Shown here one piece after another: positions 19,858 to 48,320 of a DNA stretch of 57,837 nucleotides (the first letter of the stretch is position 1; each line of letters starts with the position of its first letter). This DNA comes from Clostridiales bacterium (GTDB taxonomy: Bacteria; Bacillota; Clostridia; Lachnospirales; WRAX01), in assembly GCA_031265685.1 (NCBI GenBank), contig JAISCI010000116.1, forward strand, positions 1 to 57,837, given 5' to 3'. The notes beneath the pieces were generated by a model. The model made no database searches. It worked only from the letters and a program-made list of their open reading frames with translations, and was not told where the DNA came from. A program made the translations under genes and the position numbers.

Positions 19858-20265
19858 TCATCTTATTTCTTCTTTTCTGACAGGGGTTACGGGTTCCCCG
19901 CAGAACGGGCAGAATCTACTCTTGGCTGACATCCGCTTTCCACATTTGGCGCAGAACACAGCCGCCGAGGACGTAGTCTCGGAGTCAGCTGAATCAGCGG
20001 TCTTTTTTTTACCGAGCTTAAGCTTCGTCAGTTTATTAATGATTTCCTTTCGATATTTGGCCGCAAGCAAAATCCAAAAGAGTGCCAGAACCACGCTCGC
20101 GAGACATACTGGGCGATAACTGACGGCGTATATATTGCCAAGCGTCGAGTTCATATAGAACAGAGCGTCGCCGGACACCGCTTTCAGCATAACCGCGGCG
20201 GCAATTACCACGATGGCCGTAAGCGCGGCTAACACAAGTAATGTTATCTTAATCGGCTTTTTCAT
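19858..20265 (-). CDS. Two-TM membrane protein with a C-terminal zinc ribbon
   Basis: The TM helices are ITLLVLAALTAIVVIAAAVML and CLASVVLALFWILLAA. The C-terminal motif is CAKCGKRMSAKSRFCPFCG. The gene overlaps the upstream gene by 17 nt. Confidence 0.7.
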   Translation of the reverse strand: MKKPIKITLLVLAALTAIVVIAAAVMLKAVSGDALFYMNSTLGNIYAVSYRPVCLASVVLALFWILLAAKYRKEIINKLTKLKLGKKKTADSADSETTSSAAVFCAKCGKRMSAKSRFCPFCGEPVTPVRKEEIR

Positions 20266-21751
20266 CGGGCTTTGCCCCCTTTACCTTCTTATTCAGGAAC
20301 GCGTACCACGCGGCAAGCAGAATGAACGCCGCGCCCGGCGCGACGTATACCGTCCAATCGCCGAGAGCGTTTGTACGCTCCGCGGTTATGGTCTTAACGC
20401 TCTTGTTCCCCGCAAGGTCGTAAGCGGCGACTGATATGGGGTTCACGCCGTTTTCCAAGGCGAGTTTGGCCATAAAACCGCCCAGGCCGAGTTCCTGCTC
20501 TACGCCGTTAATCGCAACTACGGCGTTAGGCTCGGTACTGCCTTCAATGACAAGACTGCCGGCCGCGGTCGTAACGCTGTCAGGATTGTTAAGGTTCACG
20601 ACAGGCGGAGTCTTATCCACTGTTATAGACTTAGAGAACGTTTTCATGCTGCCGTTTGTGTCTTTGACGAACGCGACGACCTCGTGAGCGCCCTCGGATA
20701 GATTTAAGTCGTAATCCCCCGCGCTTGCGTCGTCAAGCACGAGCGTTCCGTCAAGATATATGCCCGCCGTTGTATCTATGGGACAATCGACCTTAACCGC
20801 GACTAAACTTTCGCGGGTTGACGAGTAATCGGGGAAGACGATCCTGCCTGCCGGGGCGGAACGTACAATTTCGTAAACGTCAAACTCGCCGTAAGCGCTG
20901 CCGCCGTCCTCGGCGGCGGAAAACTTTACCTTATCAATTTCGTCCGCAAGAGCGATCTGATAGAAATTGCTGTCGGTCCGCTCCGTCTTGATAACGGCGA
21001 GCGTTTCGCGGTCATAGAGCGTGACCATATATGAGTTATTTGCGCGCGCGTCCCAAACCGCGAACATCTCGCCGTCAATACTGCCGACCTTAACGCCTTC
21101 CAGTTTAGCGGGCGCGTTCGACTGTTTCACATAGATAGGTTCGTCCGCGGACAGGGTATATTGCTCATTGCCGTCATATACCTGAATGGAGAAGCTGTAC
21201 AGCCCTGTCAGCAGCTCGTCCGCCGACACGCTTGCCGCGCCGCGCCCGCTCGCCGAATAGTCGTTCCAAACGGCACGGCTGCCGTAATCGCCGAACCCCG
21301 CCGCGTTAATGGTCACGTTGACTGTATCCCGCTCCGCCGTTACGTCCCACTTGAAGTTTATGTATCCGCCGGACGCCTCCGCGTCAAAACTCCGAACCGC
21401 GTTGTACTGTGCCGCCGAGCTTTTGCTTCCGCCGCTGATATTGATTGCGCCGAGGCTTTCTCCAGTCACATACACAGTCCAGTAGCCGGATTTCGCCGGA
21501 CCTACGCTGACGCTCATTCCGCCTTTGCGGTATTCCGCGTTCCGTTCGTTCGTCTCAATCTCCGCGCCGTCGGGGTCTTTTATTTTTACGACCGCGTTTT
21601 GCTTCGCGTTCTCCCAGCTTACGAGGAACACGCAGTCCGCGTAATCGCGGTAGAGATAAACGCTCACTTCACGGGCGGCGCTCTCCGCGTTCGCGGTGAT
21701 TATGGGCGTGAACGCCAGCGCTGTCAGCAATGCCAAAACGAACCTTCTCAT
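20249..21751 (-). CDS. Type I membrane protein with extracellular Ig-like / beta-sandwich repeats
   Basis: The signal peptide is MRRFVLALLTALAFTPIITANA. The body is beta-rich and includes an Ig-like segment (TPPVVNLNNPDSV...LAGNKSVKTITAER). A C-terminal TM helix is followed by a basic tail. There is no LPXTG motif. Confidence 0.75.
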   Translation of the reverse strand: MRRFVLALLTALAFTPIITANAESAAREVSVYLYRDYADCVFLVSWENAKQNAVVKIKDPDGAEIETNERNAEYRKGGMSVSVGPAKSGYWTVYVTGESLGAINISGGSKSSAAQYNAVRSFDAEASGGYINFKWDVTAERDTVNVTINAAGFGDYGSRAVWNDYSASGRGAASVSADELLTGLYSFSIQVYDGNEQYTLSADEPIYVKQSNAPAKLEGVKVGSIDGEMFAVWDARANNSYMVTLYDRETLAVIKTERTDSNFYQIALADEIDKVKFSAAEDGGSAYGEFDVYEIVRSAPAGRIVFPDYSSTRESLVAVKVDCPIDTTAGIYLDGTLVLDDASAGDYDLNLSEGAHEVVAFVKDTNGSMKTFSKSITVDKTPPVVNLNNPDSVTTAAGSLVIEGSTEPNAVVAINGVEQELGLGGFMAKLALENGVNPISVAAYDLAGNKSVKTITAERTNALGDWTVYVAPGAAFILLAAWYAFLNKKVKGAKPDEKAD

Positions 21752-24700
21752 TGTCCGTAATCCTCCGCATAAGTATTGAATCCGTCGTCGGGGTTGACGC
21801 TGCCCGTGACGGCGGCGTTGTAGCTAAGGGTTTCTCCGCCGCAGGTCAGGGTAACCGGAACGGCGGTCCCCGCCGACGCGCCGCGCGGTAACTGAACGGT
21901 TATATTCACTTTGCCGTCGTGTTTGACTCCATAAAAGGCGTTGTCCAGATGCCCGTCAACGTCAATGTTCAGTTCAATCCACCGGTCGCTTACGGTCGCC
22001 GTACCGCTGATTTCGCCGCCCAAGTCGGAGCCGAACAGCGAAAGCTCATCAACACAGCTTATCGGAACGACCACCGCGCCGCCCGCGAACTTGACGTACT
22101 GGCTCGGATTGGCGGCGTCGTAGGCTTTGATACCATTAGCGCTCCAGTCGCCGGCGCATATGAACTCTATCTTGTCGCATTTCAGCGAAACATCGGCTAA
22201 CAATGACGAGACCTGCCCTCTATACGGCTCGTCGATTATTGAAAGCGGATAGTTGACCGTAATCGCCGCGTCAAGCGCTTTTTGCGGCGCGCCGCTTGTA
22301 AAGCACTCGCTAAGCCCGCTCGCGTCAATAGACAGTCCGGTGGCGCGAAGCGTCAGGCGCTCCGGATACAAACCATTTGAAGTGATCGCGAACGGCGTTT
22401 GTCCGTCAATCCTCAATAAGTTTTGAGAGTTATTAAATTTCGCCGTGCCGGACAGCTCGTACATTGAATCGGCGTTGTTCGTGTCAATCGTCAGCTTGCC
22501 GTCCGCAACCTCAATCAAGCCAAGATAGCCGCCGACCGTCCCCGCGCCGGCCACGCTCGCGAAGTCTTTCCGAATAGTAACCGTCAGGCTTTCAGCCCGC
22601 GCGTACAACCCGTTCCCGCCGTACCCCTCGAGCCGGTTCCGCGGCGAATAGCCTGTTATCATCTGAACGGCGCCGCTCATCCCGTTTTGCGGCAGCGGAA
22701 TACCGTTCAGCGCGTAATTGAGGTTGTTTTGAAGATCCGCCAGCGCACAGCCGTCGTTTATATTGTAAATCAGCTCCGAACCGTTGAACCGCGCGTCTCC
22801 GTACACGTCTCCGAAACCCGGCAGCGTCAGCGCCGCGCCGGAGTAACTGAGACTTACCGAATACTCGTCGAAGTAGAAACCGAACGAATCCAAGACTTTC
22901 ACGCTTCCTCCGCCGAACGCCGTCAGCCCGTAATTCGCGGCCGCGTCTTTGGACGCGGGGAAATCCGCGTAAGCCGCGCCGCCGCCCGTTATTGAACCGC
23001 CGCTCAGAGTTATACGCCCCGCGCTTGACGATATTGGGGAGTTAGATTGCACTGCCACCGTGGAATTTGTGCGGATAAATCCATTCAGCGCTACATTGCC
23101 GCTCAGTTTGAGGGTGTAATCGTCTTTTTGCTCCACGTTATCGGCGTAGAGCGTGTTACCGTTCCTGCCCAGGGCGATCGTCTGTCCGGCAAGTTTTTTA
23201 CCGGCAGTTCCGCCGACCGTCAGCAGCTTATCCGAGCTTTTCGATGTGCCGTCGGTGAGTTTGACTGTGACATTCAGCGCGCCCGGATTATACTTACCGC
23301 TCAACGTGAACGCGATCGCCGAATCGCCGGCGGTCTTAACGCCGCTTACCTCGCCGCCGTTGACAAACACTTTCGCGCCGTCAGTCACTCCCGCCGCGCT
23401 GACGAATATCGGAACTCCGAGTTCCGCGTCCTTGACGGACACAACGGACGGCTCGGCGCGCAGCAGCCGAAGCGCTCCCGATTCGGCGCGGGTAACGCAG
23501 CTGCCATCCTTCGTCAGCACAAGCCCGCCGTAGGCGTACGCGCGCGAGCTGCTGATCTCGTAATCCGCAAGCCCAATTGTGAGTACGCGCGGATTGGATT
23601 CGCCGTCTTGCTCGACCGTGTACTCGAAACAGTAGTTGTTCACGATGTAGTTTTGGAGCGCGGTGTATACGTTGATTAACTCGGCGTCCGTCACCGCCTC
23701 CATATAAGAGCCGCCCGTCTGATCGGCTATGTTCTCCATATACTCGCGGTTGCCGCCGCCCGTGCTGACGGTAAACACAGCCACGTTTTCTTCCTGAGCC
23801 GCCTCAATAGCGCCCGGCATTTCGCCCTCGTTGCCGTCTTCGCCGTCGGTCATAAGAATTATAGCCTTCGTGCCAACGGCGTCTTTAAGCGATTCAATGC
23901 CGCCGAGAAGGCCAATCGGGATATTCGTCCCTCCGTCGGCCACGATTCTTTCCGCGCCTGAACGCAGTTTAGAAATATCGTTCGTCAACGGGGACAGAAT
24001 CTCAACAGCGTCGTCATACATTATTACGGACAGTTCCTGGGTTTGCGCCGCGAGATTGTTTATGCAGGCTTCCACGGCGCGGCGGGCGTTCTCGATGCGG
24101 TCGCCCTGCATACTGCCGCTGCCGTCTATAACGAGCGCGATGGAGATATAGTTGCTGGTATCGTCCATTATGCGCGTTACTTTCTCGTTTGAGACCGCAA
24201 AGCCATTGTCGGCAAACGTGAAGTCCCCGACCGCGAAATCATTCGCCAGTTCTTCCACGCCGTCTTTCCTGCCGTTTACGTTGAGGTAGGCGCGGACGGT
24301 CGGGTAGCTGCCGGCGTTCACGCGGCTGACGAATATGGACATCCGCTCATATTTGAGAAGGTTGTTCAGAAACCGCGAATAGCCGCGGCTCAGAACGGAA
24401 TCCGGCAGGAACGCGTCCGCCCGCAGTACCGCGCCGATAGCCGCGGCTATGTCGCTATCCGAGGCGGAAGCGTCGTGATAAACCGCGCCGAGTTCCGCTA
24501 TCGCCGACTTTATGGAAGATTCGCCGCTGATTTTATCCTCGCGTTTGATGAGGCCAATCAGGATTTCACGCGCTTTGGCTTCGTCGCCGGACGCGGCGTA
24601 GAGCTTGGATAGCTGCAATTCAATAACGCCGCCGCTGTCGCCGAATATCGGCGTTTGCGCGGTCAGCCAGTTGATTATCCGCTTTGCCTTGACTCCGTTG

Positions 24701-25641
24701 GCTTGTTCGCGGTAATCGCCGGCTTTCGCGAGGTTCTCGGCGCGGCGCGGATTGTTCTCGCCGTAGTTGCCGGCGGCTTCCTCCGCGCTTTCCGCTTTCT
24801 TCAGCAGAGCTGATATTTCATTGTCGCTTTCATCGTAAACGGTTATATCCATGTCGTTAATCAGCTTCTGCGCGATAACGTCGGTATAAAGGACGATATT
24901 GTCCGCCGATTTGCCCGTTTCAAGCAATTTTCGGGCGTTTTCCTCCGCGGCGTCAAGACCGCCCGCCGCGTTGTAATATTTGACTGAATATCGGAGCAGC
25001 TCCCTGTCGTTCGGCGTTTCCAGGAGCATTTCGGAGAGCGTCCGCGGGTCGGTCTCGTAGAAGTTATCGCTGTTCAGCATACGGTCGCGCTTAAATCCGG
25101 ACAAAAACTCTACCTCGCTCCTTTCGTTGATTTTGAGCAGGGCAAAACAGTCGTCAGTTATTTCCGACAGTTTTTCGCGGGCTTCATCGTCGGTCGGGAT
25201 ACCGCCCTCCAAACCCGTCATTTGGCGCGACAGCGCGTATATCTTGTCCGCCTGCGCCAGCAAGCCGCCGCCCAGTCCGCCGCTGTTTTTAAGGTCGTCG
25301 GCGCCTATGAACGCGCTTGCGTAATTGCCGCGCCAGCAGTCGGCAAGCAAGGAAATCACATCGGAATGAGGGTTTTGAACTTTAGAGGCGTTCTCCGCCG
25401 CTTTATCAATGTTACCTTCCAGAAGATAGCTGTACGCGTTATAAAGCGTTCTCGCGGAGGTGTCCGCGTTTTGGGCGGCGCTCAAAACGCCGGCGGCGCC
25501 GCTCGCGAGCGTGAGGACGCACAGCGCCGCCAAACTTATATTGCGCGGCGCGGCGCGTTTGACCGTGAACAGCTTAGCCGTGAGTATATCCACCGCGATG
25601 AACACCGCGAATACCGCCGCTAATAACAGGAATACATTCAC
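21748..25641 (-). CDS. 1297-aa membrane-anchored protein: N-terminal TM helices, helical (TPR-like) region, vWA domain, large beta-rich C-terminal region
   Basis: The TM helices are at residues 1-60. The vWA domain has the MIDAS motif DGSGS (ALVIDGSGSMQGDRIENARRAV), plus ILMTDGEDG and a GGTNI segment. The C-terminal ~600 aa is Gly/Ser/Thr/Asn-rich and beta-like. An ATGA overlap with the downstream gene lies at 21748-21751. Confidence 0.85.
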   Translation of the reverse strand: MNVFLLLAAVFAVFIAVDILTAKLFTVKRAAPRNISLAALCVLTLASGAAGVLSAAQNADTSARTLYNAYSYLLEGNIDKAAENASKVQNPHSDVISLLADCWRGNYASAFIGADDLKNSGGLGGGLLAQADKIYALSRQMTGLEGGIPTDDEAREKLSEITDDCFALLKINERSEVEFLSGFKRDRMLNSDNFYETDPRTLSEMLLETPNDRELLRYSVKYYNAAGGLDAAEENARKLLETGKSADNIVLYTDVIAQKLINDMDITVYDESDNEISALLKKAESAEEAAGNYGENNPRRAENLAKAGDYREQANGVKAKRIINWLTAQTPIFGDSGGVIELQLSKLYAASGDEAKAREILIGLIKREDKISGESSIKSAIAELGAVYHDASASDSDIAAAIGAVLRADAFLPDSVLSRGYSRFLNNLLKYERMSIFVSRVNAGSYPTVRAYLNVNGRKDGVEELANDFAVGDFTFADNGFAVSNEKVTRIMDDTSNYISIALVIDGSGSMQGDRIENARRAVEACINNLAAQTQELSVIMYDDAVEILSPLTNDISKLRSGAERIVADGGTNIPIGLLGGIESLKDAVGTKAIILMTDGEDGNEGEMPGAIEAAQEENVAVFTVSTGGGNREYMENIADQTGGSYMEAVTDAELINVYTALQNYIVNNYCFEYTVEQDGESNPRVLTIGLADYEISSSRAYAYGGLVLTKDGSCVTRAESGALRLLRAEPSVVSVKDAELGVPIFVSAAGVTDGAKVFVNGGEVSGVKTAGDSAIAFTLSGKYNPGALNVTVKLTDGTSKSSDKLLTVGGTAGKKLAGQTIALGRNGNTLYADNVEQKDDYTLKLSGNVALNGFIRTNSTVAVQSNSPISSSAGRITLSGGSITGGGAAYADFPASKDAAANYGLTAFGGGSVKVLDSFGFYFDEYSVSLSYSGAALTLPGFGDVYGDARFNGSELIYNINDGCALADLQNNLNYALNGIPLPQNGMSGAVQMITGYSPRNRLEGYGGNGLYARAESLTVTIRKDFASVAGAGTVGGYLGLIEVADGKLTIDTNNADSMYELSGTAKFNNSQNLLRIDGQTPFAITSNGLYPERLTLRATGLSIDASGLSECFTSGAPQKALDAAITVNYPLSIIDEPYRGQVSSLLADVSLKCDKIEFICAGDWSANGIKAYDAANPSQYVKFAGGAVVVPISCVDELSLFGSDLGGEISGTATVSDRWIELNIDVDGHLDNAFYGVKHDGKVNITVQLPRGASAGTAVPVTLTCGGETLSYNAAVTGSVNPDDGFNTYAEDYGQ

Positions 25642-25651: not shown

Positions 25652-26503
25652 TCACATTCCCGCGTTGCCGCTTACGTCTATGTACGGCGGACCCGCGTTT
25701 TTTATAGCCGTGGCATCGCCGAGTTTGTTGTTCGCCAGATACAGCAGCCGCAGACTGCCGCCTATGCCCGGAACGGACGTGATTTGGTTGTCCGACAGGT
25801 GCAGATACTTCAAGCCGTCAAGAGCGAACAGCGCATCGGCGTTCGTTATCTTGTTGCCGCGCAGACCTATATATTCGAGCGAACGCAATCCCGCCAGCGG
25901 CGATACGTCCGCGATGGCGTTGTTCGCGGCATAGAACTTTTTGAGCGTCGCGAGCTTGGCGACCGCGCCGATGTCCGTTATGCCGTTGCCGGAGACGTCA
26001 AGCCGCTCCAAATTAGTGAACTCAGACAACGCGGCCATATCCGCGTCCGTCAGTCCGCAGTCGCGCAGGACGAGTTCGGCTATGTCGGCTTGATAGCTCC
26101 GCCCGGCGATCTCAACAGCCGCCGCATCCGAAACCGCCGGCAAATCCGCCGCGCCGCCGTCGCGGGCAAGCTCGGTAAGCTCTCGCTCAATCACGGCGCT
26201 GTTTGTGGCTCCGTAGCCGCTTTCAAGCGTTTCGCGGGCGGTGTCAATGTCGCCCATATAGCGGTAGGCTTTCGCCAACGCGAGATACGCCTCCGTATTG
26301 TTCGGCTCGACCGTTATGACGTGTTCAAGCGCGGCGGTCGCCTGTTCGTAGTTGAGTTCGGCAAGATACTTTTCGCCTATGCTCAGCCGCGTGGCGTTGA
26401 CAGCCAAAGCCGCGCCGCCGCGCGGGAAATACGCGTATGCGCCGAACCCCGCGGCGGCTGTGACTATCGCGGCTATCGCCAAGATTATGGCGCGGGTTTT
26501 CAC
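25652..26503 (-). CDS. Membrane-anchored TPR plus leucine-rich-repeat (internalin-like LRR) protein
   Basis: It has an N-terminal TM helix and a TPR segment related to the lipoprotein family (IGEKYLAELNYEQA). It then has 5 or more LRRs (LERLDVSGNGITDIGAV, LKKFYAANNAIADVSPL, LEYIGLRGNKITNADAL, LKYLHLSDNQITSV). Confidence 0.8.
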   Translation of the reverse strand: MKTRAIILAIAAIVTAAAGFGAYAYFPRGGAALAVNATRLSIGEKYLAELNYEQATAALEHVITVEPNNTEAYLALAKAYRYMGDIDTARETLESGYGATNSAVIERELTELARDGGAADLPAVSDAAAVEIAGRSYQADIAELVLRDCGLTDADMAALSEFTNLERLDVSGNGITDIGAVAKLATLKKFYAANNAIADVSPLAGLRSLEYIGLRGNKITNADALFALDGLKYLHLSDNQITSVPGIGGSLRLLYLANNKLGDATAIKNAGPPYIDVSGNAGM

Positions 26504-26550: not shown

Positions 26551-27357
26551 TCACTGATCCGCCTGTTCATTAATCCATTCGCCGTCGTATCGGCGCGTAC
26601 TTGTACCGTCAAACGTAATTAGCTGCTCCGTCTCGCCGAATTCATCATATATTCGGAAGTTTGAGCCGAGCTGGCCGTCAGTGGTAAACGAATCGAACCA
26701 ATGCGTTCTCCCGTCTTCAAGCTTTACCCCAATGGAGCAGCTGGAAAACCCCTCTTCCAAATTCCATTCAGGAGAGTTTTCCATTGGAATATAGCGCAGT
26801 TTCCAAATGCCGGAATTGTCCGACTTATAGATTATATCGGTTCCGCTTGAAACCTCCGCGCAGAGCGAGCGAAACTCCCGGGAATTTGCCAACTCGTAAG
26901 CGACCGCGTAGTCCGCCGCTAAAACCGCCGTCTCAATCGGTTCAAGCACGCCAAACTGCTCGCTTGTCAATACTATATCAACGGAAACCGGCGTCAGTTC
27001 GGATGTTGGTTCGGGCGTCAGTTCGGGCGCGGGCAGCAATTCATCCAGCATAGCCGCGATCTCAGCGCTATCCGGCAGCTGTGCCCGCCCCCGGCGCAGC
27101 GCCTCAACCGCCCTGTCGGTATCGCCAATCCCAACGTAGGCTTCCGCCAAGCCCGTGTATCCGCGCGGATTTTTCGGCTCAATTTCGATGAGCCTTGTGA
27201 ATTGTACGATGGCCTGTTCGTAATCCAGCTCCAGCAGATACTTTTCGCCGAGATCAAGCAGTTCGGCGGCGGTGAGTTCGCGGGCGGGAGCCGCGCAGGC
27301 GGCGAATATCGTTAGCGCAAGCGCGAGTATTGTCAATTTTGACGCAACGCGTTTCAT
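26551..27357 (-). CDS. Lipoprotein, shared N-terminal TPR module with unique C-terminal domain (paralog 1)
   Basis: The lipobox is IFAAC. The module is TAAELLDLGEKYLLELDYEQAIVQFTRLIEIEPKNPRGYTGLAEAY, followed by a Pro/Glu/Thr linker and an unrelated C-terminus. Confidence 0.8.
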   Translation of the reverse strand: MKRVASKLTILALALTIFAACAAPARELTAAELLDLGEKYLLELDYEQAIVQFTRLIEIEPKNPRGYTGLAEAYVGIGDTDRAVEALRRGRAQLPDSAEIAAMLDELLPAPELTPEPTSELTPVSVDIVLTSEQFGVLEPIETAVLAADYAVAYELANSREFRSLCAEVSSGTDIIYKSDNSGIWKLRYIPMENSPEWNLEEGFSSCSIGVKLEDGRTHWFDSFTTDGQLGSNFRIYDEFGETEQLITFDGTSTRRYDGEWINEQADQ

Positions 27358-27373
27358 TCTGAATCATCCTAAT

Positions 27374-28145: not shown

Positions 28146-28301
28146 CTATTTGAGATTTCCGCCGTATTCCTCGTTCAGTTTGCGGCGCAGACGCCTCCGG
28201 CTGCCCGCCAGCACGGCAATTACGATGACTGCCGCCACAACGACGACCGCCATCCCGGCTATGCCGCCGTAAAAGAGCATTTCACCCGGTGTTAAGCTCA
28301 T
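28146..28301 (-). CDS. Unannotated 51-aa single-TM protein (MSLTPGEMLFYGGIAGMAVVVVAAVIVIAVLAGSRRRLRRKLNEEYGGNLK)
   Basis: It falls below the ORF-track length cutoff. ATG at 28301 is preceded by a GGAGGG RBS and lies 10 nt after the kinase stop codon. It has a hydrophobic helix followed by a basic stretch. The last codons (GGNLK*) and the downstream leader are duplicated at the end of paralog 2 (GGNLE*). Confidence 0.5.
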   Translation of the reverse strand: MSLTPGEMLFYGGIAGMAVVVVAAVIVIAVLAGSRRRLRRKLNEEYGGNLK

Positions 28302-38991: not shown

Positions 38992-39243
38992 TCAAATAAG
39001 TATCAGCTTGGACGCGTTGCGTATTCCCGCGTCGCGCACCGTGATACCGCGCTCGTACGGCTCCCCGCTGTCCGCGTCCAGCAAGACCGAATCGGCCGTA
39101 CCCTTATAACTGCCTCCCGACAGAGATTCGGCTATGCTGACAAGCAGCCGCGTGGCTTCTCCGATTTGCTTTCCGCTCGGCAGATAAGCGTCGTAGTGTT
39201 TCCCCGCCGCGGGGAGATGAACGTCCACAAGATATTTTTTCAT
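38992..39243 (-). CDS. esaB: YukD/EsaB-like ubiquitin-fold protein
   Basis: It is 83 aa. The beta-grasp-like pattern (KYLVDVHL...YDAYLP...IGE...VRDAGIRNASKLILI) fits the family, and it sits in the canonical position just downstream of essC. Confidence 0.7.
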   Translation of the reverse strand: MKKYLVDVHLPAAGKHYDAYLPSGKQIGEATRLLVSIAESLSGGSYKGTADSVLLDADSGEPYERGITVRDAGIRNASKLILI

Positions 39244-42200: not shown

Positions 42201-43946
42201 GATATTCTTCTTGTGTTCGAGCGCGCGGCGGACACATTCCGTTTTTGAGGCGAGTTCCTTATCCAAACAGATAATGACAAAGTACGGCGCTTCGTCGTCA
42301 AGCCTGCTTTCGCTCAATCCCTTGCGGTACTCTATGACGGAATCGAGGGCCTGCGACAGTTCTTTCGCTTCCTCCGAGTTCGTCGCGATGTAGCGAACCG
42401 TCCGCTCGTTGTTCATCGTATGAGGCAGCCACCGGGCAAAGCCGAAATCGGCTCCGCCGCTCTCGTCATATATAAGCGCGAGCTTAACCTCGTCGTAGCT
42501 GTGGAGGGCCGCGATCTGGATTATCAGGTTTTTCGCGTAAGAGAACAGGATGTCGCGGCCGGCGTACAGTCCGCTGACGAACCGCTCCGCGATGGGCAGA
42601 CAAACCGGAACATCGCGCAGCCAGCGTTTTGTCTCTCCAAACTGATACATCATCTCGGTCAAATTGTCCTTCTCGACCGTGAATCTGCGCTCCGAATACT
42701 GAATATTGGCTTTAAGCGGCAGATTGCCGCTGCCAAGCCGCAGAGACAGAAAATCGGTATGCTTCGGGGTGCGCTCCCAAATCCGCGGGTTCGGCGACAG
42801 AACGCGGCTCACGCAAGTCTCGGTATCGACGTCGTTATCGCGCAGGATTTGCTCCTGACGGGCGGTTTCGCTGGCGATAAGCGTCTGCATTTGCGCGAGA
42901 TATTCCTTATAAGTTTCCTGCCGCTTCGTTTCTTTGCGCTCGCGCAGTCTTTTTTGGAAAGTCTTTGTAATAAGAGGCCACATCAGCGTACCGAGTAGCA
43001 TACTCAGGCACATAACTATCGACGGGATAGCCGAGGTAATATCTCCGCGACCGATAGCGCTTGTAACCGCGAACACGCCGCTCGCCGCCGAAGCCATACC
43101 CATAGTCAGGGACGGACCGATCAGCATAATCATCGGCACCTCGTCATTGTCCTGATTATTAGGCGGCGCGTCTATTTTAAGCTCGAAAACACCGACGTCG
43201 CGCTTGAAACGCGGGGCGCGGTAATAATAGTCGGACTGAACGTCCTCGAAATCGTCGTCGGCATCGTAATCGTCGGGGGCGTTCTTGGTTTGCGGCGCGT
43301 GATACTCGCGGAGTCCGCCGCTCTGCACCTTAACGTTCCCGTCGGGATTGTTGAGAAATATTCCCCGGTTGGTTACTATAATCCGCAGTCCCAATATGTA
43401 AATAACGTCGCCTACGCTGAGCCGCCGCTGCCGCGTTACCGCTTTACCGTTGACATAAGTATTGTTTGTGCTGCCCAAGTCGCGCACAATTATCCCGTCG
43501 GGTGAAATGGTCAGTTCGGCGTGGTTTCTGGAAGCGAAATTATTTGAATAGCAAATGTTGTTCTCCGAGTTCAGCCCAATCGTCAGCACCGTCCGCGTGT
43601 CCGTAAGCTCGTAACCGCGGTACCTCTTGCGATCAGCGCTGAGCGGCTCGGTATACAGCACGAATTTATGCGCCCCGTCCGCGCTTTGTATTCTGTATAA
43701 CTCAAGCGGACTCAACGGCACGCTCTGCAAGATGTTGTTGGATTTGTCACGAATTTTGAAGCGGCGGTTCGACTTCATAATCCACTGGGACGCGCCTCCG
43801 CTCTCCGCGGAGCGCAGCGCCTCTACGGAAACCACGTCCGACAGCTTGCCGTCGGCGTTTCTGCCGCGCACCCAATAATGCCCCGCGTATTTTTCCGGCA
43901 AGGTCATACTGGTGTATTCCTGTTTTGAAAGAAGCGTCAGTTTCAT
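39258..43946 (-). CDS. essC: Type VII secretion FtsK/SpoIIIE-family ATPase EssC/YukB
   Basis: It is 1562 aa with two N-terminal FHA-like domains (second one: SRNHAELTI...GSTNNTYVNG) and two TM helices. Three P-loop ATPase modules follow (D1 GMTGSGKSE, D2 GSAGNGKAM, D3 with a degenerate Walker A). Confidence 0.95.
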   Translation of the reverse strand: MKLTLLSKQEYTSMTLPEKYAGHYWVRGRNADGKLSDVVSVEALRSAESGGASQWIMKSNRRFKIRDKSNNILQSVPLSPLELYRIQSADGAHKFVLYTEPLSADRKRYRGYELTDTRTVLTIGLNSENNICYSNNFASRNHAELTISPDGIIVRDLGSTNNTYVNGKAVTRQRRLSVGDVIYILGLRIIVTNRGIFLNNPDGNVKVQSGGLREYHAPQTKNAPDDYDADDDFEDVQSDYYYRAPRFKRDVGVFELKIDAPPNNQDNDEVPMIMLIGPSLTMGMASAASGVFAVTSAIGRGDITSAIPSIVMCLSMLLGTLMWPLITKTFQKRLRERKETKRQETYKEYLAQMQTLIASETARQEQILRDNDVDTETCVSRVLSPNPRIWERTPKHTDFLSLRLGSGNLPLKANIQYSERRFTVEKDNLTEMMYQFGETKRWLRDVPVCLPIAERFVSGLYAGRDILFSYAKNLIIQIAALHSYDEVKLALIYDESGGADFGFARWLPHTMNNERTVRYIATNSEEAKELSQALDSVIEYRKGLSESRLDDEAPYFVIICLDKELASKTECVRRALEHKKNIKFSVLSMFERLADLPKECAAVVELRGGSNGNLTLIGDVSDPPIPFNIDAPQRIDAEFCANQAKFIQRATGVLANTFVDVSGSNFTLPKKYTFFEMLDIGMIEHLNLADNWSANDPAKSLAAAVGVDKYGEPFKLDLHERAHGPHGLVAGMTGSGKSEFIIAYILSMAVSFHPYEVAFILIDYKGGGMAKSFENIPHTAGIITNLDGNGIKRSLASMRSELHRRERIFRDTSRRHNVSNIDIYKYQKLYREGKVSEPLPHLFIISDEFAELKKEQPDFMTELTSTARVGRSLGVHLILATQKPGGVVDDQIRSNSRFRVCLKVQDVGDSTEMLGRPEAAALVDTGRFYLQVGYNELFEIGQSAWAGAPYYPSAKVIKDRDDAVSVINTNGRVIAEANIDRFAMVKDPPKQLDVVTGYISKVCEEEHVKRWKMWLDPIPALIYADGLADKYGKSAAERFVLNPIAGEFDDPARQSQGILRVPVTSDGNVIVYGSAGNGKAMFIESMCYSLMNEHTPREVNIYIMDFGAETLTAFAGAPHVGDVILSYETEKVNNLFKLIIGKLETRKKLLSQFGGSMVQYNKQADVPEPSLVVVINNYAAFTELFEEKSAEISYLTREGTKYGIYFILTCTGVNNVKFSLLQNFKLLYCLQLNNTDDYATVVGKTEGMLPDKMKGRGIFRRDKDGLLEFQTASITAEDPPYGFIRGFVKRMSAKYSGAGAMSVPVLPEKVTERFLSPYVRDGDLSRVPIGVEKATLEIAYCNFTASAVNLVLSVNQEWQDFTNALGALVASRCGVKTIVLAPTGKTLIQSSSENLQVFNDTNGCVNAVRDIFGIVLSRNNEYKDRLAEGGRIPRFEPLFVVIQSMSLLKTMLERYNPAEKVKKDAADDTPLNRLHLAMAKCDKAYNVHFVVAESLNSLTPLTVENWYKAHINGNDGIWVGGGINAQYRLTVSKKPRDYSAELESDFGFVVAGAAATLVKFLR

Positions 43947-44770
43947 ACTTTTCTCCGTTTTCCGAATTTATTCGCGATCCCGTGAATGAACGCTATCCGC
44001 GGGATTGCCGCGTCAGCCACAACGATTGTCACATTGTCCCTTCCGCCGTTATCTAACGCCGATTTAAGCAAGTAATCGGCGGCGGCGGCGGTTTTAACGG
44101 AACTTTTTAACGCGTCTTCGATTTCGGCGCGGCTTACCATATCGGTCAATCCGTCGGAACAAATCAGGATCCGGCATTTTCCGCGTATAGGCGGATAACT
44201 CTCCGCGGCGCGCGTTTCGCCGATTCCTATGCACCGCGTAAGTTTGTGCCTGTCTTTTTCGAGCCGCGCCCGCTCCGCCGTTATTAAGCCGCTCCGAACT
44301 TTCTCTGCCGCCAAAGTATGGTCGTTTGTCACTTGCGCGAGAGCGCCTTCTGTTAAACTATAAATTCGCGTATCTCCTATGCTGAAACAGTATACGCCGC
44401 TTTCCGCGACTATTGCCAGCGCGAGCGTTGTGCCGACCCGGCAGGCGGGGTTTCCCGAGCGTATCGCCTTATTTGCCGCGCTGACGTAGGCCTGCGCGCC
44501 GCGCTCAAATTCCGCGGGCGAACACGATTTAATCCGTTCGCTGTATTGCGCCAGCAGGGAAACCGCTGTCAGCGAAGCGATCTCGCCGTCGTTCTCGCCG
44601 CCCATCCCGTCGCAGACCGCTAAAATTACAGGCGCGCGCGAACTGCCGTCAATGGCGAACGGACGTTCGCGTGTTTCGGAGGTAAGCGTCACACCGTCCG
44701 CAAACAGGTTATCCTCGTTTTTATCCCGAACCCTACCAACGTGAGAACGGGCCGAATACGCCACATCCAT
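43943..44770 (-). CDS. PP2C-family Ser/Thr phosphatase (Stp/PrpC-like)
   Basis: The motifs RVRDKNEDN, AVCDGMGGENDGEIAS, ICSDGLTDMV and GGRDNVTIVV are present. An ATGA overlap with essC lies at 43943-43946. Confidence 0.92.
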   Translation of the reverse strand: MDVAYSARSHVGRVRDKNEDNLFADGVTLTSETRERPFAIDGSSRAPVILAVCDGMGGENDGEIASLTAVSLLAQYSERIKSCSPAEFERGAQAYVSAANKAIRSGNPACRVGTTLALAIVAESGVYCFSIGDTRIYSLTEGALAQVTNDHTLAAEKVRSGLITAERARLEKDRHKLTRCIGIGETRAAESYPPIRGKCRILICSDGLTDMVSRAEIEDALKSSVKTAAAADYLLKSALDNGGRDNVTIVVADAAIPRIAFIHGIANKFGKRRKV

Positions 44771-44781: not shown

Positions 44782-46350
44782 TTAAAATATGGACTCGGTT
44801 TTACTGCCGCCGGGCGACTTTTCCGGTTCGCGCGGATGGGCGGGCGCCCCAAGCGACTGAATATAATCTATATGTAACGACTCCCGTCCGAATTTCAGCG
44901 TACAGCCGGATTGCAGAGGAGAACTTCCCGTGATATTTACGCCGTTCAAAAACGTCTTGTTTGTCCGGCTCAAATGAACGACGATCAGCCCCGCGCCCTG
45001 AGCGGCGATTTTGCACTGCTCGCGCGAAACGCTCTTATCGTCAAGCCGAATGGCGCAATATTCGGCGCGGCCGATTACCAATTCGCCGTTTATGGGAAGG
45101 ATCCAGTTTTTGCCTGGATTATCGGGGTTACTAAGCTTAATTGTAAACTGCGCTCCCGAAAAATCCGCCTCGCCGACAAACTCGGTCTTTTCGTAGTAAT
45201 TACCTCCGCCTGACACTATTTCATTCGGCGCGCTGTATTCGGAAGTCCGCTTTTTCTTTTTCCCGCGGGTAACGGCGACGGCTATAATCACCGCGATAAG
45301 TATAATGAGCAAAACACCCGCGCCTATAAAAACAACCAGAGTATAGTCCCCGAACACGGAAGTTATAGACTCGGTCGATTCAGGCTCGTATTCTACCGGC
45401 GATACCGTCGGTTTCGGCGCCGCGGTTATTTCAGGCGCGGCCGGCGGCTCGGCTGTCTCGGCTGAGGGAGCGTCAAAAACAGAAACTTTCATATCGAACT
45501 GAACGGAATTAACTCCGTCCGAAATGTCCACCTGCCGAGTCGAACCGTCTAACAACGCGCTCGGGAGTACGGCTCTGAGCCAAAACACCCCGCCGGAAGC
45601 GAGACTCGAAGAAAGTTCCGGAATGTCGGATTCAGGATATAGATTCACATATCTGCCGCCGCTCATCCGGGTCAGCGCGGATAACTCTTTTTCAGGCTCC
45701 GTTTGTTTCGATCCGCTGACCGCGACGACGTCAACGGGATAGGCGTCGGCCTGAAGCTTCAGATAAAGCTCCTCTTTGGTCACGCCGCTCGCGGTATCGT
45801 CTATACCGTCCGTGATAACAATCGTGCGGTAGTAGCAGGGTTTGTCCTCAATCGGCTGAACCTTCGGAATCGTGTTGTAAATCGCGTCATAAATCCTGCT
45901 CTGCTGACCGTTAAACTCGATTTTCGCCGCGGCGCCGGCAAGGTCGTACCGGTCGGATGTGAAATCCTGTAATACGGTAAGCCGCTCGCCGAAAGTCACA
46001 ATCTTGAATTGCTCGTTCTTCGCGATACGCTCAATCATGGCGTCAATATAAGCCTTAATATCCGCCCGGGCTTCCGGCGGCATGGAAGTGGAAATATCAA
46101 GCAGAACCGTGGCGCGAACCGTCACGTCTTTGTCCGACAGAAAACCGCCGTCCGTAATCTCCGCCGTTTGATTGGACACCTTGACGATAAGGTTATCAGC
46201 GTCCATTTCACCCGCTACAAACACATCCATGTTACGTTCCCACACATATGCCTGCGACAAGGAGGCGCCGTCCGCGCGGCACACGGCCAGCGGCGCCATG
46301 AGGGCTGATACTAATACAAAGACAAACGTAAACAGCTTCTTGGTCAGCAT
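44782..46350 (-). CDS. Bitopic protein with an extracellular vWA domain, one TM helix and a cytoplasmic FHA domain
   Basis: It has an N-terminal signal/anchor. The vWA domain has the MIDAS motif DISTS (VLLDISTSMPPEARADIKAYID...VITDGIDD). The TM helix is LVVFIGAGVLLIILIAVIIAVAV. The C-terminal FHA domain reads LVIGRAEYCAIRLDDKSVSREQCKI...SRTNKTFLNG. Confidence 0.88.
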   Translation of the reverse strand: MLTKKLFTFVFVLVSALMAPLAVCRADGASLSQAYVWERNMDVFVAGEMDADNLIVKVSNQTAEITDGGFLSDKDVTVRATVLLDISTSMPPEARADIKAYIDAMIERIAKNEQFKIVTFGERLTVLQDFTSDRYDLAGAAAKIEFNGQQSRIYDAIYNTIPKVQPIEDKPCYYRTIVITDGIDDTASGVTKEELYLKLQADAYPVDVVAVSGSKQTEPEKELSALTRMSGGRYVNLYPESDIPELSSSLASGGVFWLRAVLPSALLDGSTRQVDISDGVNSVQFDMKVSVFDAPSAETAEPPAAPEITAAPKPTVSPVEYEPESTESITSVFGDYTLVVFIGAGVLLIILIAVIIAVAVTRGKKKKRTSEYSAPNEIVSGGGNYYEKTEFVGEADFSGAQFTIKLSNPDNPGKNWILPINGELVIGRAEYCAIRLDDKSVSREQCKIAAQGAGLIVVHLSRTNKTFLNGVNITGSSPLQSGCTLKFGRESLHIDYIQSLGAPAHPREPEKSPGGSKTESIF

Positions 46351-46412: not shown

Positions 46413-46736
46413 TCAGGTAAGCGGAATACCGCATTTTTCGCAGAACGCCCCGGTTTTCTTGGTCGCCTTTCCGCATTTGGGGCAGAGCGTTTGGCCGGGG
46501 GACATCGCGCCGAGTTCGCGTTTCGCCCGCATTTCGCTGATTTTACGCCCCGCCGCGTCCACTCCCGCGTTAACGGCGTTCTCCAGCGCTTTCTCAATGA
46601 CTATTATGATAAACACACCCGCCGCGCTGACCGCGACGCCCGCGATTATACCTATTCCTAAGCCAAACTGACCCCCGGCAAGAATGCCGAGCAATATGCC
46701 GAAAACAACCCCGTAATGGGCGTATGTCCTGCGCAT
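46413..46736 (-). CDS. Membrane protein (2-3 TM helices) with a C-terminal zinc ribbon
   Basis: The N-terminal half is Gly-rich and hydrophobic. The C-terminal motif is CPKCGKATKKTGAFCEKCG. Confidence 0.7.
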   Translation of the reverse strand: MRRTYAHYGVVFGILLGILAGGQFGLGIGIIAGVAVSAAGVFIIIVIEKALENAVNAGVDAAGRKISEMRAKRELGAMSPGQTLCPKCGKATKKTGAFCEKCGIPLT

Positions 46737-46749: not shown

Positions 46750-47076
46750 CTAATATCCCGCGCTGTAAGCCGCGTTCATAAACCAATTCGCCAGTTCCAT
46801 ATCTCCAATCGGCCTGCCGTTAATTTCAGCGTAGACCACAACGTATTCGCCGTCATAAACGCCGTACTGATCCGAAAACTGAATCAGCGCCTTGTCGCCG
46901 CCCGATGTTTCCCCGGTAAACTCAACCACTTGGGAATAGGCGCTTGAGGTGAACTTATCCCACTTTCCGCCCTTACAGAACCCGTCAAGCAACTGCCCGC
47001 AAGTGATATTGACGCCAACGCTCGCAAGCCCGGCGCCGGTGTTTTTGACCTTCTCAATCTCAGAACCTGTATTCAT
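46750..47076 (-). CDS. Hypothetical 108-aa protein, possibly the detached C-terminal part of the upstream zinc-ribbon/TM gene
   Basis: The first ATG clear of the repeat element is at 47076 and has no obvious RBS. The ORF-track N-terminal extension translates the palindromic element at 47148-47238. Confidence 0.45.
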   Translation of the reverse strand: MNTGSEIEKVKNTGAGLASVGVNITCGQLLDGFCKGGKWDKFTSSAYSQVVEFTGETSGGDKALIQFSDQYGVYDGEYVVVYAEINGRPIGDMELANWFMNAAYSAGY

Positions 47077-47147
47077 AGATGGAATCGACGTCTTTTCGGC
47101 TGATTTCCCGTCGTTGATCGACGTTTGATGTTGTCTTAGACAACATC

Positions 47148-47238
47148 TGAATTTTGCTTGGCGAATTTTGCATCGCATTATCGTTTGAACCACACGATAA
47201 TGCTTCGAACCACGCGAAATTCCATCACGCAAAATTCA
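47148..47238. repeat. Composite nested palindrome (MITE-like) of REP-family words
   Basis: GAATTTTGC...GCAAAATTC form the outer arms. GCATTATCGT...ACGATAATGC form the inner arms. The element lies between two co-directional ORFs. Confidence 0.75.
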
Positions 47239-47258
47239 TCAAGCCATCTTCTTCATCG

Positions 47259-47582
47259 TCAGCCAAAAACTTGCGTACTCTCTGAGTACGCAGCGTTTTC
47301 CGCTTCCTCGCCCGGCGGAAAATCATCGCGCAAATCCGCCGATTCCACTAATGAATACAGGTTCTCCGCGCCATCCGCGACTTTTACGGCGATGAAGATA
47401 ATCAGCGCGATAACCGCGATTATGACAACCCCGGCCATGTTCCGCTTGCTCGCTCCCGCGGTCTTACGGGCGACCGCCCGCTGAACAGCGGCGTCTATGT
47501 CCGGATCCAGTTTCGCGCCGCAGCCCGCGCAGAACTTGGACGCTTGGGCATTGTCTTTGCCGCAGAATTTACACTCTCTCAT
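47259..47582 (-). CDS. N-terminal zinc-ribbon protein with one TM helix
   Basis: The zinc ribbon is CKFCGKDNAQASKFCAGCG. The TM helix is MAGVVIIAVIALIIFIAV, followed by a short extracytoplasmic tail. Confidence 0.7.
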   Translation of the reverse strand: MRECKFCGKDNAQASKFCAGCGAKLDPDIDAAVQRAVARKTAGASKRNMAGVVIIAVIALIIFIAVKVADGAENLYSLVESADLRDDFPPGEEAENAAYSESTQVFG

Positions 47583-47594: not shown

Positions 47595-48104
47595 CTATGA
47601 AACCGCCGAGACGGTTATCTTTACGCGCGGATCCGCGGACGACGCCAGCGCCTTCAGCGTTTCCGTCAGCTCGGCCATCTCTTTAGCGTACGGACAAACG
47701 CCGTCGCTCTGCGTCCATGAGATGAAATTGAACACGGCGGCGGTGGCGCCGTTCGCCTCCGTGAACCTCATTCCCGCTTTAACGTGGGGAATAACCCCGC
47801 TCGCGTACTTGAAATCGACGACCCCGTAGGCAAAACCCAGCGTGTCTCCGTTCCGGACGCATATCCAGCCGCTTTTCCAGGCAAGCCGGGAGTTTGTCTC
47901 GGGGAAATGGTTCTTGACCCTTGTGATCAAGGCCTCCTTTCCGACCGACGACTCGAACTTCCACACCTGCCCCGTCATTTCCTTTTCGCGCCTGTAGCTG
48001 CCTCCCGATATAATCCGGTTCGCTCCGCGCCTGATCACGCGCATAACATAGTAAATAACTAAGCTCGCCGCGGCGAGTCCGGCGATGATGAGAAACTGCT
48101 GCAT
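47595..48104 (-). CDS. Single-TM protein (hypothetical), first gene of the array
   Basis: ATG at 48104 follows a GAGGGGG RBS. The N-terminal TM helix is FLIIAGLAAASLVIYYV. I recognise no family. Confidence 0.65.
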   Translation of the reverse strand: MQQFLIIAGLAAASLVIYYVMRVIRRGANRIISGGSYRREKEMTGQVWKFESSVGKEALITRVKNHFPETNSRLAWKSGWICVRNGDTLGFAYGVVDFKYASGVIPHVKAGMRFTEANGATAAVFNFISWTQSDGVCPYAKEMAELTETLKALASSADPRVKITVSAVS

Positions 48105-48140
48105 AATATGTACCCCCTCGGTCAAATCCGCCGTTCGTCT

Positions 48141-48320
48141 CAATGTAACACAATCTCCAGACTGTTACATTACCATTATATCGGGTGTCCGCGCGGTTAT
48201 CCGAGGAGGCAATCCGCCCCGCGAGGCGTCAGAATCAAATGGCGCAGGGCTGAAAAGCCGATAAATAAACAATAAAAACGCCAAAGTAACAGTCTGGAGA
48301 GCCTGTTACTTTGGCGTTTT
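48141..48320. promoter_or_regulatory. Candidate invertible promoter segment: 14-bp perfect inverted repeats flanking 117 bp that carries a TATAAT box, plus an 18-bp-stem hairpin
   Basis: The inverted repeats are CTCCAGACTGTTAC (48155-48168) and GTAACAGTCTGGAG (48286-48299). The minus-strand TATAAT (48180-48175) points into the 28-kb array. The hairpin AAAACGCCAAAGTAACAG/CTGTTACTTTGGCGTTTT (48275-48320) overlaps the right repeat. Confidence 0.4.

Follow-up and report, generated by a model that had tools for sequence, protein, structure and literature searches.

Gene content of the array

The window analysed here comprises positions 1–57,837 of contig JAISCI010000116.1 of a Clostridiales bacterium (GenBank assembly GCA_031265685.1), and the subject is a gene array on the minus strand, running from position 48104 down to 19858, that encodes a type VII secretion system (T7SS). 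An earlier note on this DNA had described 27 consecutive open reading frames (ORFs) spaced by 64 nt or less, except for one 182-nt gap (47077–47258), and the ORF listing confirmed this layout. Listing and translation yielded 25 credible genes, numbered g01 to g25 along the direction of transcription; the total of 27 further includes a 51-amino-acid (aa) ORF (g19b, 28146–28301), which occupies space that would otherwise be another 182-nt gap, and a doubtful 100-aa ORF (34052–34354). The latter is probably spurious because it overlaps g15, has no Pfam match, and has no homolog in 100 related loci (related loci are numbered L001 onward below); dropping it opens another gap of 241 nt (34043–34283). 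The stop/start overlaps were also verified (ATGA at 43943–43946 and 21748–21751, and TAATG at 30442–30446, minus strand). The array was regarded as a bounded island of approximately 28 kb because it is flanked by housekeeping genes, encoding trigger factor, ClpX, HtpG, GlnRS, thioredoxin, MatE, and ABC-F.

Pfam was searched with all array ORFs (E ≤ 0.01) and NCBIfam with 20 of them (E ≤ 0.1), and the topology of the array proteins was deduced from hydropathy. The secretion core consists of four genes, given here with the names of their counterparts (Tse) in the published T7SSe class:

39258–43946, minus strand: g07, EssC of the TseC clade, 1562 aa (TIGR03928, 974 bits; cutoff, 778)
38992–39243, minus strand: g08, YukD/EsaB-like protein, 83 aa, TseB equivalent (Pfam YukD in 6/9 orthologs)
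38642–38938, minus strand: g09, WXG100 protein, TseA1-like, with weak PPE similarity (Pfam WXG100, 37.3 bits; cutoff, 27.3)
38325–38627, minus strand: g10, WXG100 protein, TseA2-like, of the 'pore-forming ESAT-6' subfamily (Pfam WXG100, 40.9 bits; cutoff, 27.3; NF035934, E 8e-16)

An EssC/EccC-type membrane FtsK/SpoIIIE ATPase is present in the array, as indicated by the TIGR03928 score above the cutoff and by two FtsK_SpoIIIE stretches in Pfam. The earlier note had assigned two FHA domains and three ATPase modules to this protein; one FHA domain (residues 122–184) and FtsK_SpoIIIE modules were recovered with hidden Markov models, while a further FHA domain and a third ATPase module stand only insofar as the full-length EssC match implies them. 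Relatives of the window EssC numbered 519, with more than 100 clusters at 61–83% identity, and nearly all came from metagenome-assembled genomes (MAGs) or metagenomes labelled Oscillospiraceae, Clostridia, or Ruminiclostridium; a genome-contig search with EssC returned 7 loci, all of them in MAGs. Among 119 close homologs, the FHA motif residues are kept in 113 (Arg of GR), 117 (Ser), 119 (His), and 119 (Asn) proteins, respectively, and the window EssC has GL in place of GR at approximately residue 125, with SxxH retained and NN.

The g08 protein itself showed no family match. Its orthologs (60–84% identical) match Pfam YukD in six of nine cases (best E, 7e-6), and these matches, together with gene position, are the reason for identifying g08 as the YukD/EsaB-like protein claimed previously. 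A single-sequence model of g08 has the order beta-beta-alpha-beta-beta with a predicted local distance difference test (pLDDT) score of 76, and a profile of the nine orthologs found no match in PDB. Regarding the four WXG100-like proteins reported in the array, g09 and g10 exceed the Pfam cutoff, while the other two (g14 and g15) are weak matches.

Eight further genes form a set that recurs in related genomes:

44782–46350, minus strand: g05, signal peptide, extracellular vWA, transmembrane (TM) segment, and cytoplasmic FHA (Pfam FHA, 49.7 bits; VWA_2, 31.2 bits; hydropathy)
43943–44770, minus strand: g06, PP2C/PPM Ser/Thr phosphatase, TseF equivalent (Pfam PP2C_2, 47.9 bits; conserved neighbour of EssC)
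28312–30444, minus strand: g19, Ser/Thr kinase with TM segment and extracellular TPR, TseD equivalent (Pfam Pkinase, 118 bits)
28146–28301, minus strand: g19b, 51-aa single-TM protein, TseH-like (ORF scan; 66–79% identical in L014–L020)
25652–26503, minus strand: g22, membrane-anchored TPR and LRR protein (Pfam LRR_4, 77 bits; 69–71% identical in L014–L020)
21748–25641, minus strand: g23, 1297-aa vWA protein (Pfam VWA, 64 bits)
20249–21751, minus strand: g24, signal peptide, Ig-like domains, and C-terminal TM segment, 500 aa, TseI-like but shorter (Pfam Glucodextran_B, 36 bits; Big_13; hydropathy)
19858–20265, minus strand: g25, TM protein with cytoplasmic C-terminal zinc ribbon, TseK-like (Pfam Zn_Ribbon_1, 28 bits)

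Pfam and NCBIfam bore out the domain calls made earlier for the neighbours of EssC, namely the vWA, Ig-like, TPR-LRR, kinase, PP2C, and vWA-TM-FHA proteins, four zinc-ribbon proteins, and four TPR lipoproteins. The hydropathy-based topology is coherent, with vWA, TPR, LRR, and Ig domains outside the cell and kinase, FHA, PP2C, and zinc-ribbon domains inside. The metal ion-dependent adhesion site (MIDAS) motif of the g05 vWA domain is DISTS; in its FHA domain, GR, Ser, and Asn are conserved in 15/15 orthologs, and His is changed to Gln. This gene lies directly upstream of PP2C-EssC in L001, L002, L004, L005, L009, and L010. Among 117 kinase homologs, the catalytic residues are largely retained (HRD in 111/117, DFN in 111/117, and Lys in 108/117), and all are kept in g19 itself; kinase homologs amounted to 310 clusters. 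The TM51 gene g19b is found directly 3' of the kinase in all kinase-containing relatives, and it is small enough for annotation to overlook easily.

The g24 and g25 proteins are 60% and 52–57% identical, respectively, to their counterparts in L014–L020. The g23 protein has two N-terminal TM segments, a helical region, a vWA domain (MIDAS motif DGSGS), and a beta-rich C-terminal half, and is predicted to be extracellular and adhesin-like. Its homologs formed 28 clusters, and its C-terminal 617 aa had 31 matches among 1.84e9 representative proteins, always at the C-terminus of proteins of approximately 1300 aa. When one member of the family was modelled with AlphaFold (pLDDT, 79), the Foldseek matches were vWA domains and the pilus-tip adhesins SpaC and Mfa5. 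The possibility that g23 is a disguised EsaA was rejected, as it has no C-terminal TM segments and the model matches vWA adhesins rather than EsaA.

Relationship to the T7SSe class

T7SSc to T7SSj, which are known from genome comparison only, were defined from RefSeq gene neighbourhoods (Garrett, Higginson & Palmer 2024, Microlife 5:uqae013, PMC11217815). In these systems, EssC, WXG100, and YukD-like proteins occur with kinases, PPM phosphatases, and FHA, Ig-like, and zinc-ribbon membrane proteins that replace the T7SSb parts (PMC11217815). T7SSe consists of TseA1, TseA2, TseB, TseC (the FHA-bearing EssC), TseD (a TM kinase), TseF (PPM), TseH (one TM segment), TseI, TseJ, and TseK (PMC11217815). 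TseI has a signal peptide, Ig-like domains, and a C-terminal TM segment; TseJ is cytoplasmic, with DUF6382 at its N-terminus and FHA at its C-terminus; and TseK has one TM segment and best matches zinc-ribbon proteins (PMC11217815). TseA1 is PPE-like and TseA2 is 'pore-forming ESAT-6'-like (PMC11217815), and g09 and g10 resemble them in the same way according to Pfam and NCBIfam.

The earlier note had proposed an undescribed T7SS-like apparatus, without recognisable EsaA, EssA, or EssB and with its membrane components replaced. The first part held: Pfam (all array ORFs) and NCBIfam (20 of them) gave no EssB/YukC, EsaA, or EssA match, and the neighbouring genes are conserved. The word 'undescribed' is untenable because an EssC with 77% identity to that of the window, within the same core locus, has already been listed as TseC. 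This protein, WP_208926621.1, is encoded in a complete genome deposited as Desulfitobacterium hafniense with a core gene order common to both loci, and appears in the TseC sheet of Supplementary Data 5 (PMC11217815). The N-terminal 740 aa of the window EssC aligned from residue 1 with the TseC representative at 38% identity (497 bits), compared with 29% for TsdC, 29% for TsiC, 26% for TsjC, 24% for TsfC, and 22% for Staphylococcus aureus EssC; these identities are approximate, the N-terminal ~700 aa of the subtype representatives having been obtained by optical character recognition from Fig. S2 of PMC11217815. We consider it probable that the locus, which belongs to an Oscillospiraceae-like genome of uncultured Clostridia, is a T7SS of the published T7SSe class, in an extended sub-variant whose accessory module replaces EsaA, EssA, and EssB, a placement made by pairwise identity and the TseC listing rather than by a tree. 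It is new only as a sub-variant, characterised by the vWA ectodomain on the FHA protein, the TPR-LRR protein, the 1297-aa vWA protein, and the lipoproteins sharing a TPR 'handle' (described below).

The likeness to T7SSe extends over much of the locus. The window EssC falls in the TseC clade and has an FHA domain at its N-terminus, a small YukD-like protein that InterPro fails to recognise occurs together with two WXG100 proteins that differ from each other, and a TM Ser/Thr kinase (g19), a PPM phosphatase (g06), and a separate FHA protein (g05) are all present. The architecture of g24 matches that of TseI (signal peptide, Ig-like domains, and C-terminal TM segment); g19b fits TseH, and g25, g02, and g04 fit TseK, by architecture alone. 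DUF2974 or 'reverse' lipase substrates with small WXG-like partners are shared as well. Judged by sequence and gene order, g05 is the protein that occupies the position and role of TseJ, with a different N-terminal domain.

Several features depart from the published description. TseJ is a cytoplasmic DUF6382-FHA protein, whereas g05 spans the membrane in type I orientation and exposes a vWA domain on the outside. In the window, the ectodomain of the kinase consists of TPR, a feature reported for T7SSj (TsjD), and g24 has 500 aa compared with approximately 1650 aa for the T7SSd counterpart TsdI (the length of TseI is not given there). The TPR-LRR protein, the 1297-aa vWA protein, and the TPR-handle lipoproteins are additional conserved neighbours beyond the T7SSe list, and the FHA domain of the window EssC has GL instead of GR.

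T7SSj, found in a few Clostridium species (PMC11217815), also resembles the window locus in having a kinase with C-terminal TPR, PPM, FHA-protein, Ig-like, and zinc-ribbon-type parts, and an EssC with FHA. However, T7SSj has one WXG100 core protein and no TseH-like protein, whereas the window encodes two WXG100 proteins and the 51-aa TM protein. Membership in T7SSj was rejected, as the EssC N-terminus is closer to TseC than to TsjC (38 and 26%, respectively).

In common with the window, the T7SSb systems of S. aureus and Bacillus subtilis (EsxA, EsaA, EssA, EsaB, EssB, and EssC) have a TIGR03928 EssC, a protein resembling YukD/EsaB, substrates of the WXG100 family, and toxins of the LXG or 'reverse' type accompanied by Lap partners and immunity lipoproteins. 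The window differs in having no EssB, EsaA, or EssA and, in place of the pseudokinase, a kinase of apparently active type with its catalytic residues kept; moreover, the EssC FHA domain in the clade of the window retains phosphothreonine-binding residues that T7SSb EssC does not have (PMC11217815 Table S1). It is highly improbable that the locus is an ordinary T7SSb in which some of the 'unknown' ORFs are strongly diverged, unrecognised forms of EssB, EsaA, and EssA. Such a reading could draw on the EssB-like topology of g19 (cytoplasmic kinase fold, TM segment, and extracellular domain) and on the large size and extracellular location of g23 and g24, as in EsaA. It is at odds with the lack of any YukC/EssB, EsaA, or EssA match in Pfam or NCBIfam at permissive thresholds, with the catalytic HRD, Lys, and Asp of the kinase, unlike the EssB pseudokinase, with the adhesin-like model of g23 and its lack of a C-terminal TM bundle, and with the EssC N-terminus, which is 22% identical to S. 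aureus EssC versus 38% to TseC.

Linkage of the accessory genes to EssC and proposed function

The block g05-g06-EssC-g08-g09-g10 occurs in the same order in L001, L002, L004, L005, L009, and L010, at 38–88% identity. Downstream of it come variable effector cassettes, then TPR lipoproteins, and then the kinase and TM51 (L002 and L010/L018). A second arrangement was found in Thermoclostridium caenicola and related bioreactor contigs, in which g05, g19, g19b, g06, g22, g23, g24, and g25 are contiguous in this order at 43–79% identity, with several overlapping stops and starts, directly downstream of the YukD, EssC, and WXG100 genes (L014–L017, L020, and L021). The EssC of this type is 33–35% identical to that of the window; no EssB, EsaA, or EssA was found in the Thermoclostridium-type locus, and the T. 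caenicola EssC (WP_149679316.1) is absent from the TscC–TsjC lists of PMC11217815. Chemotaxis and flagellar genes lie upstream of this locus. The earlier note had raised the possibility that the vWA, kinase, and TPR genes adjoin EssC by accident; these genes recur with EssC in related loci, partly reordered, and are not accidental neighbours because the same set is linked to EssC in two gene orders and in two EssC lineages. This comparison provides strong evidence, at the level of sequence, that the accessory genes are functionally coupled to EssC.

A competing explanation is that two separate systems are juxtaposed, with a minimal T7SS (g05–g10 and effector cassettes) beside an independent envelope-signalling or adhesion module. 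In L019, the kinase-TM51-TPR genes, zinc-ribbon genes, and a gene for a small FHA protein adjoin an FHA-ABC transporter, and the 10 kb around them contain no EssC; g22–g25 are missing from D. hafniense; the homologs of the kinase (310 clusters) and EssC (519) far outnumber those of g23 (28); and effector and lipoprotein genes part the two halves in the window. However, the eight-gene set includes the FHA protein and PP2C genes, which flank EssC in the window, and Thermoclostridium-type loci hold all eight genes as one overlapping block right after EssC and WXG100. The linkage outlasts both rearrangement and the change of EssC lineage, there is no other candidate membrane apparatus at either locus, and the core of T7SSe as published already comprises the kinase, PPM, FHA, Ig, and zinc-ribbon proteins (PMC11217815). 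On this balance, we regard two juxtaposed systems as unlikely.

The effector cassette, the TPR lipoproteins, and a soluble zinc-ribbon protein are as follows:

37557–38261, minus strand: g11, 234-aa lipoprotein, candidate lipase immunity protein (lipobox and signal peptide in the sequence)
35154–37553, minus strand: g12, 799-aa candidate substrate with lipase and CHAP domains (Pfam Mbeg1-like, 37 bits; CHAP, 23.8 bits)
34284–35141, minus strand: g13 (70 aa), g14 (99 aa), and g15 (110 aa), small helical WXG100-like, Lap-like proteins (weak Pfam WXG100)
32885–34042, minus strand: g16, TPR lipoprotein of the shared-N-terminus family, 385 aa (Pfam, cross-matches, hydropathy)
32380–32844, minus strand: g17, soluble double zinc-ribbon protein, 154 aa (Pfam Zn_Ribbon_1, 50.6 bits)
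30444–32315, minus strand: g18, TPR lipoprotein, 623 aa from MSRAIPL (Pfam)
26551–28129, minus strand: g20 (251 aa) and g21 (268 aa), TPR lipoproteins (Pfam, cross-matches)

The g12 protein consists of an N-terminal Mbeg1-like (DUF2974) lipase with GHSQG, a hydrophobic helical middle with a strongly hydrophobic segment at residues ~430–448, a Gly/Ser linker, and a C-terminal CHAP domain. Its orthologs, with 513–557 aa, cover the first ~70% only and are without the linker and the CHAP (peptidoglycan hydrolase) domain. In L003, L009, and L010, a g11 counterpart (36–37%) is co-conserved with the lipase and immediately precedes it; because of this co-conservation, g11 is likely the immunity protein for the lipase. 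The g14 protein matches NF035934 (E 2.6e-12), and the trio g13–g15 is 45–80% conserved in L001, L003, L009, L010, and L012, standing beside different toxins in L001 and L012; the whole cassette g11–g15 is conserved in L003, L009, and L010. 'Reverse' lipases with Lap partners, such as TslA/TslM of S. aureus T7SSb, are known T7 substrates. The g12 cassette is similar to TslA/TslM in having an N-terminal GxSxG lipase followed by a helical region, small WXG100-like partners alongside, and an adjacent membrane-anchored or lipoprotein immunity candidate, and differs in the Mbeg1-like/DUF2974 type of the lipase, the three partner genes, the strongly hydrophobic middle, and the CHAP domain, which has no counterpart in the g12 orthologs.

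The four TPR lipoproteins (g16, g18, g20, and g21) share a TPR 'handle' of approximately 100 residues with 57–84% identity, followed by unrelated C-terminal domains; g20 and g21, for instance, share 84% identity over the N-terminal 105 aa and have C-terminal parts with no relationship to each other. Divergence was judged from BLAST local matches, which end after ~75–150 residues, and global identities of the C-terminal parts are not meaningful. The TPR module of g22 is homologous to the N-terminus of this family according to cross-matches, and the handle pattern recurs around the kinase in L001, L002, L009, L010/L018, and L019. The long TTG-start ORF of g18, reaching 32546, is probably over-extended. 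A homolog of g17 adjoins the kinase module in L019, an Oscillospiraceae MAG with a 618-kb contig, in which the kinase, TM51, and many TPR-handle proteins with DUF285, C-type lectin, or CarboxypepD_reg C-termini adjoin zinc-ribbon proteins, a small FHA protein, and an FHA-ABC transporter.

These lipoproteins could alternatively be a raft of immunity proteins against the lipase/CHAP toxin rather than sensors. Non-identical lipoprotein paralogs beside a T7 lipase toxin are typical of immunity arrays, and in D. hafniense three TPR lipoproteins lie between the lipase and its partner genes. Nevertheless, the paralogs share their N-terminal TPR module with the conserved g22 and vary in the C-terminal domains only, they are grouped around the kinase in L019 as well, although neither a lipase nor EssC is close by, and strict co-conservation with the lipase is a property of another lipoprotein, g11. 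An immunity role for the TPR lipoproteins thus seems somewhat doubtful, and we favour their participation in sensing.

As its predicted parts suggest, the locus likely serves to export WXG100 proteins and a lipase-CHAP toxin by a T7 route under phosphothreonine gating. In the proposed mechanism, the extracytoplasmic vWA, TPR, LRR, and Ig proteins and the polymorphic TPR-handle lipoproteins would provide surface sensing and a cell-wall-spanning assembly, and a ligand or contact signal would activate the kinase g19. The FHA domain of g05 would recognise the resulting phosphothreonine marks, as would that of EssC in most relatives, leading to assembly or activation of the EssC translocon, which the PP2C g06 would reset. 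The exported cargo would be the WXG100 pair g09/g10 and the 'reverse-arrangement' lipase-CHAP toxin g12, with g13–g15 assisting the export of g12 and g11 giving immunity.

In the threonine-phosphorylation pathway of the type VI secretion system (T6SS), the components are the PpkA kinase, the PppA PP2C, Fha1, and Tag lipoprotein sensors. The window locus likewise combines a membrane Ser/Thr kinase, a PP2C, and an FHA protein within a secretion locus, together with extracytoplasmic vWA proteins and lipoproteins, and the logic of post-translational gating would be the same. In contrast, the machine is unrelated, the host is monoderm, and the vWA domains belong to the FHA protein and to another, giant protein rather than to the kinase, so that the likeness is one of analogy. 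Phosphorylation gating of this kind has been suggested for T7SSe, T7SSf, and T7SSj, with the T6SS precedent cited (PMC11217815).

A number of observations weigh against this interpretation or against parts of it. For every T7SSe system, secretion itself, the targets of phosphorylation, and the functions of the extracellular proteins have been inferred. The window EssC has Leu where the phosphothreonine-binding Arg is expected, and the FHA-like N-terminus of the Thermoclostridium-type EssC is without the GR and SxxH motifs altogether; direct phosphothreonine control of EssC is therefore not general. D. hafniense has the core, the kinase, TM51, and TPR proteins without g22–g25, which are thus not universally required, and L019 holds its kinase-TM51-TPR set with no EssC within 10 kb. 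Furthermore, DUF6382, which defines TseJ, has no Pfam match in g05; a Foldseek search with the single-sequence model of g08 returned nothing significant and did not recover the YukD fold; and g01–g04 are not conserved, with no homologs in the 100 loci.

The T7SSe class appears to be wider than described, being abundant in uncultured Oscillospiraceae and Clostridia (>100 EssC clusters at 61–83% identity), and a RefSeq-based survey would under-sample such uncultured carriers. The inside-outside topology of the module leads to a testable model in which Gram-positive secretion is gated by surface signals via threonine phosphorylation, and T. caenicola and D. hafniense are culturable carriers.

Promoter cassette and margins of the array

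A recombinase gene diverges from the upstream end of the array, and a short cassette separates it from four lineage-specific genes that precede g05. These features, together with two further elements of the array, are as follows:

48345–48917, plus strand: 190-aa tyrosine recombinase (Phage_integrase, FimB/FimE size), divergent from the array (Pfam PF00589, E 1.6e-25)
48141–48313, no strand assigned: promoter cassette, with two 31-nt sites (48141–48171 and 48283–48313) around 111 nt (inverted-repeat analysis)
47595–48104, minus strand: g01, 169 aa with N-terminal TM segment, first gene after the promoter (ATG at 48104; Shine-Dalgarno sequence GAGGGGG)
47259–47582, minus strand: g02, zinc ribbon and single TM segment, 107 aa (Pfam DZR/Zn_Ribbon_1 below cutoff; hydropathy)
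47077–47258, no strand assigned: 182-nt intergenic gap with tandem and inverted repeats, inside a 37-nt inverted-repeat pair (47062–47098 and 47329–47365)
46750–47076, minus strand: g03, 108 aa, no family match
46413–46736, minus strand: g04, two TM segments and C-terminal zinc ribbon, 107 aa (Pfam, hydropathy)
19801–19830, no strand assigned: GC-rich hairpin with 11-bp stem, just past the last stop codon of the array (consensus scan)

The two 31-nt inverted sites have the form CAATGTAACA-N12-TGTTACATTG and are 84% complementary; their asymmetric spacers are mutually inverted, and each site is palindromic. A perfect TATAAT, found by eye, lies between the sites at 48180–48175 (minus strand) and is aimed at the array, and transcription of the array most likely starts from this element inside the cassette, at ~48.18 kb. 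The same cassette layout precedes g05 in L001 (6663–7462) and the second-lineage YukD-EssC genes in L023 (1–439). An integrase in the equivalent position in L001 shares 70% identity with the window recombinase, and L023 holds a partial copy. A 439-nt stretch with the cassette and the 5' end of the integrase gene is 98% identical between L001 and L023; the match breaks off precisely at the promoter-proximal site, beyond which the T7SS operons are different.

The cassette looks like a candidate invertible switch of the fim type or a recombination site. Invertible promoter switches of the fim type use the FimB/FimE recombinases, and the window shares with them a tyrosine recombinase of ~190 aa beside a short segment flanked by inverted repeats and carrying an outward-facing -10 element. 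It differs in that the four cassette copies are all in one orientation and the sites are palindromic; this integrase occurs in just one further contig, which is an identical copy. Because each site is itself palindromic, the cassette can be read equally well as a pair of operators.

Taken jointly, these data admit a broader reading, which we offer tentatively and hold to be possible rather than probable. The eight-gene set may be a portable sensing and envelope module carried on two distant EssC lineages (module, 43–79%; EssC, 33–35% identical), one of them with degenerate FHA domains. It may thereby define a T7SS sub-type with extracellular parts (the TPR-LRR protein, the giant vWA protein, and swappable TPR-handle lipoproteins) outside the T7SSa–j catalogue, in which a FimB/FimE-like recombinase switches the locus via the promoter cassette. 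If this is true, the T7SS would be phase-variable or shuffled by recombination, and phase variation would be added to T7SS regulation. What merits attention in this locus is the extra extracellular proteins that are conserved, the set of eight genes as a portable module, and the potential switch.

The genes g01–g04 stand between the conserved promoter cassette and g05, and in L001 g05 directly follows the cassette. No Pfam or NCBIfam match and no homolog in the 100 related loci was found for g01 or g03, and only the zinc-ribbon part of g02 matches elsewhere; we treated g01–g04 as lineage-specific passengers of the operon rather than parts of the system because of the lack of homologs in the 100 loci. 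The composite repeat reported earlier in the 182-nt gap (47148–47238) is present, with tandem units of 14 nt (two copies) and 20 nt (two copies) plus inverted repeats. The surrounding 37-nt inverted repeat is 81% complementary with a perfect 15-nt core; it copies the start codon and four codons of g03, in inverted form, within the coding region of g02, thus bracketing the gap, and may be a second recombination or regulatory element. Rfam families were not detected in the window, including this gap. Consensus scans for promoters and terminators gave counts not above those in shuffled sequence, and the hairpin at 19801–19830 is likely the terminator of the array, as a candidate. Outside the array, a 485-aa ORF (7594–9051) and ORFs of 232, 199, and 196 aa (17.4–19.4 kb), none with a Pfam match, are located in stretches of lower GC content (7594–9051 and 16000–19800; 0.48–0.50, compared with 0.55–0.62 elsewhere).

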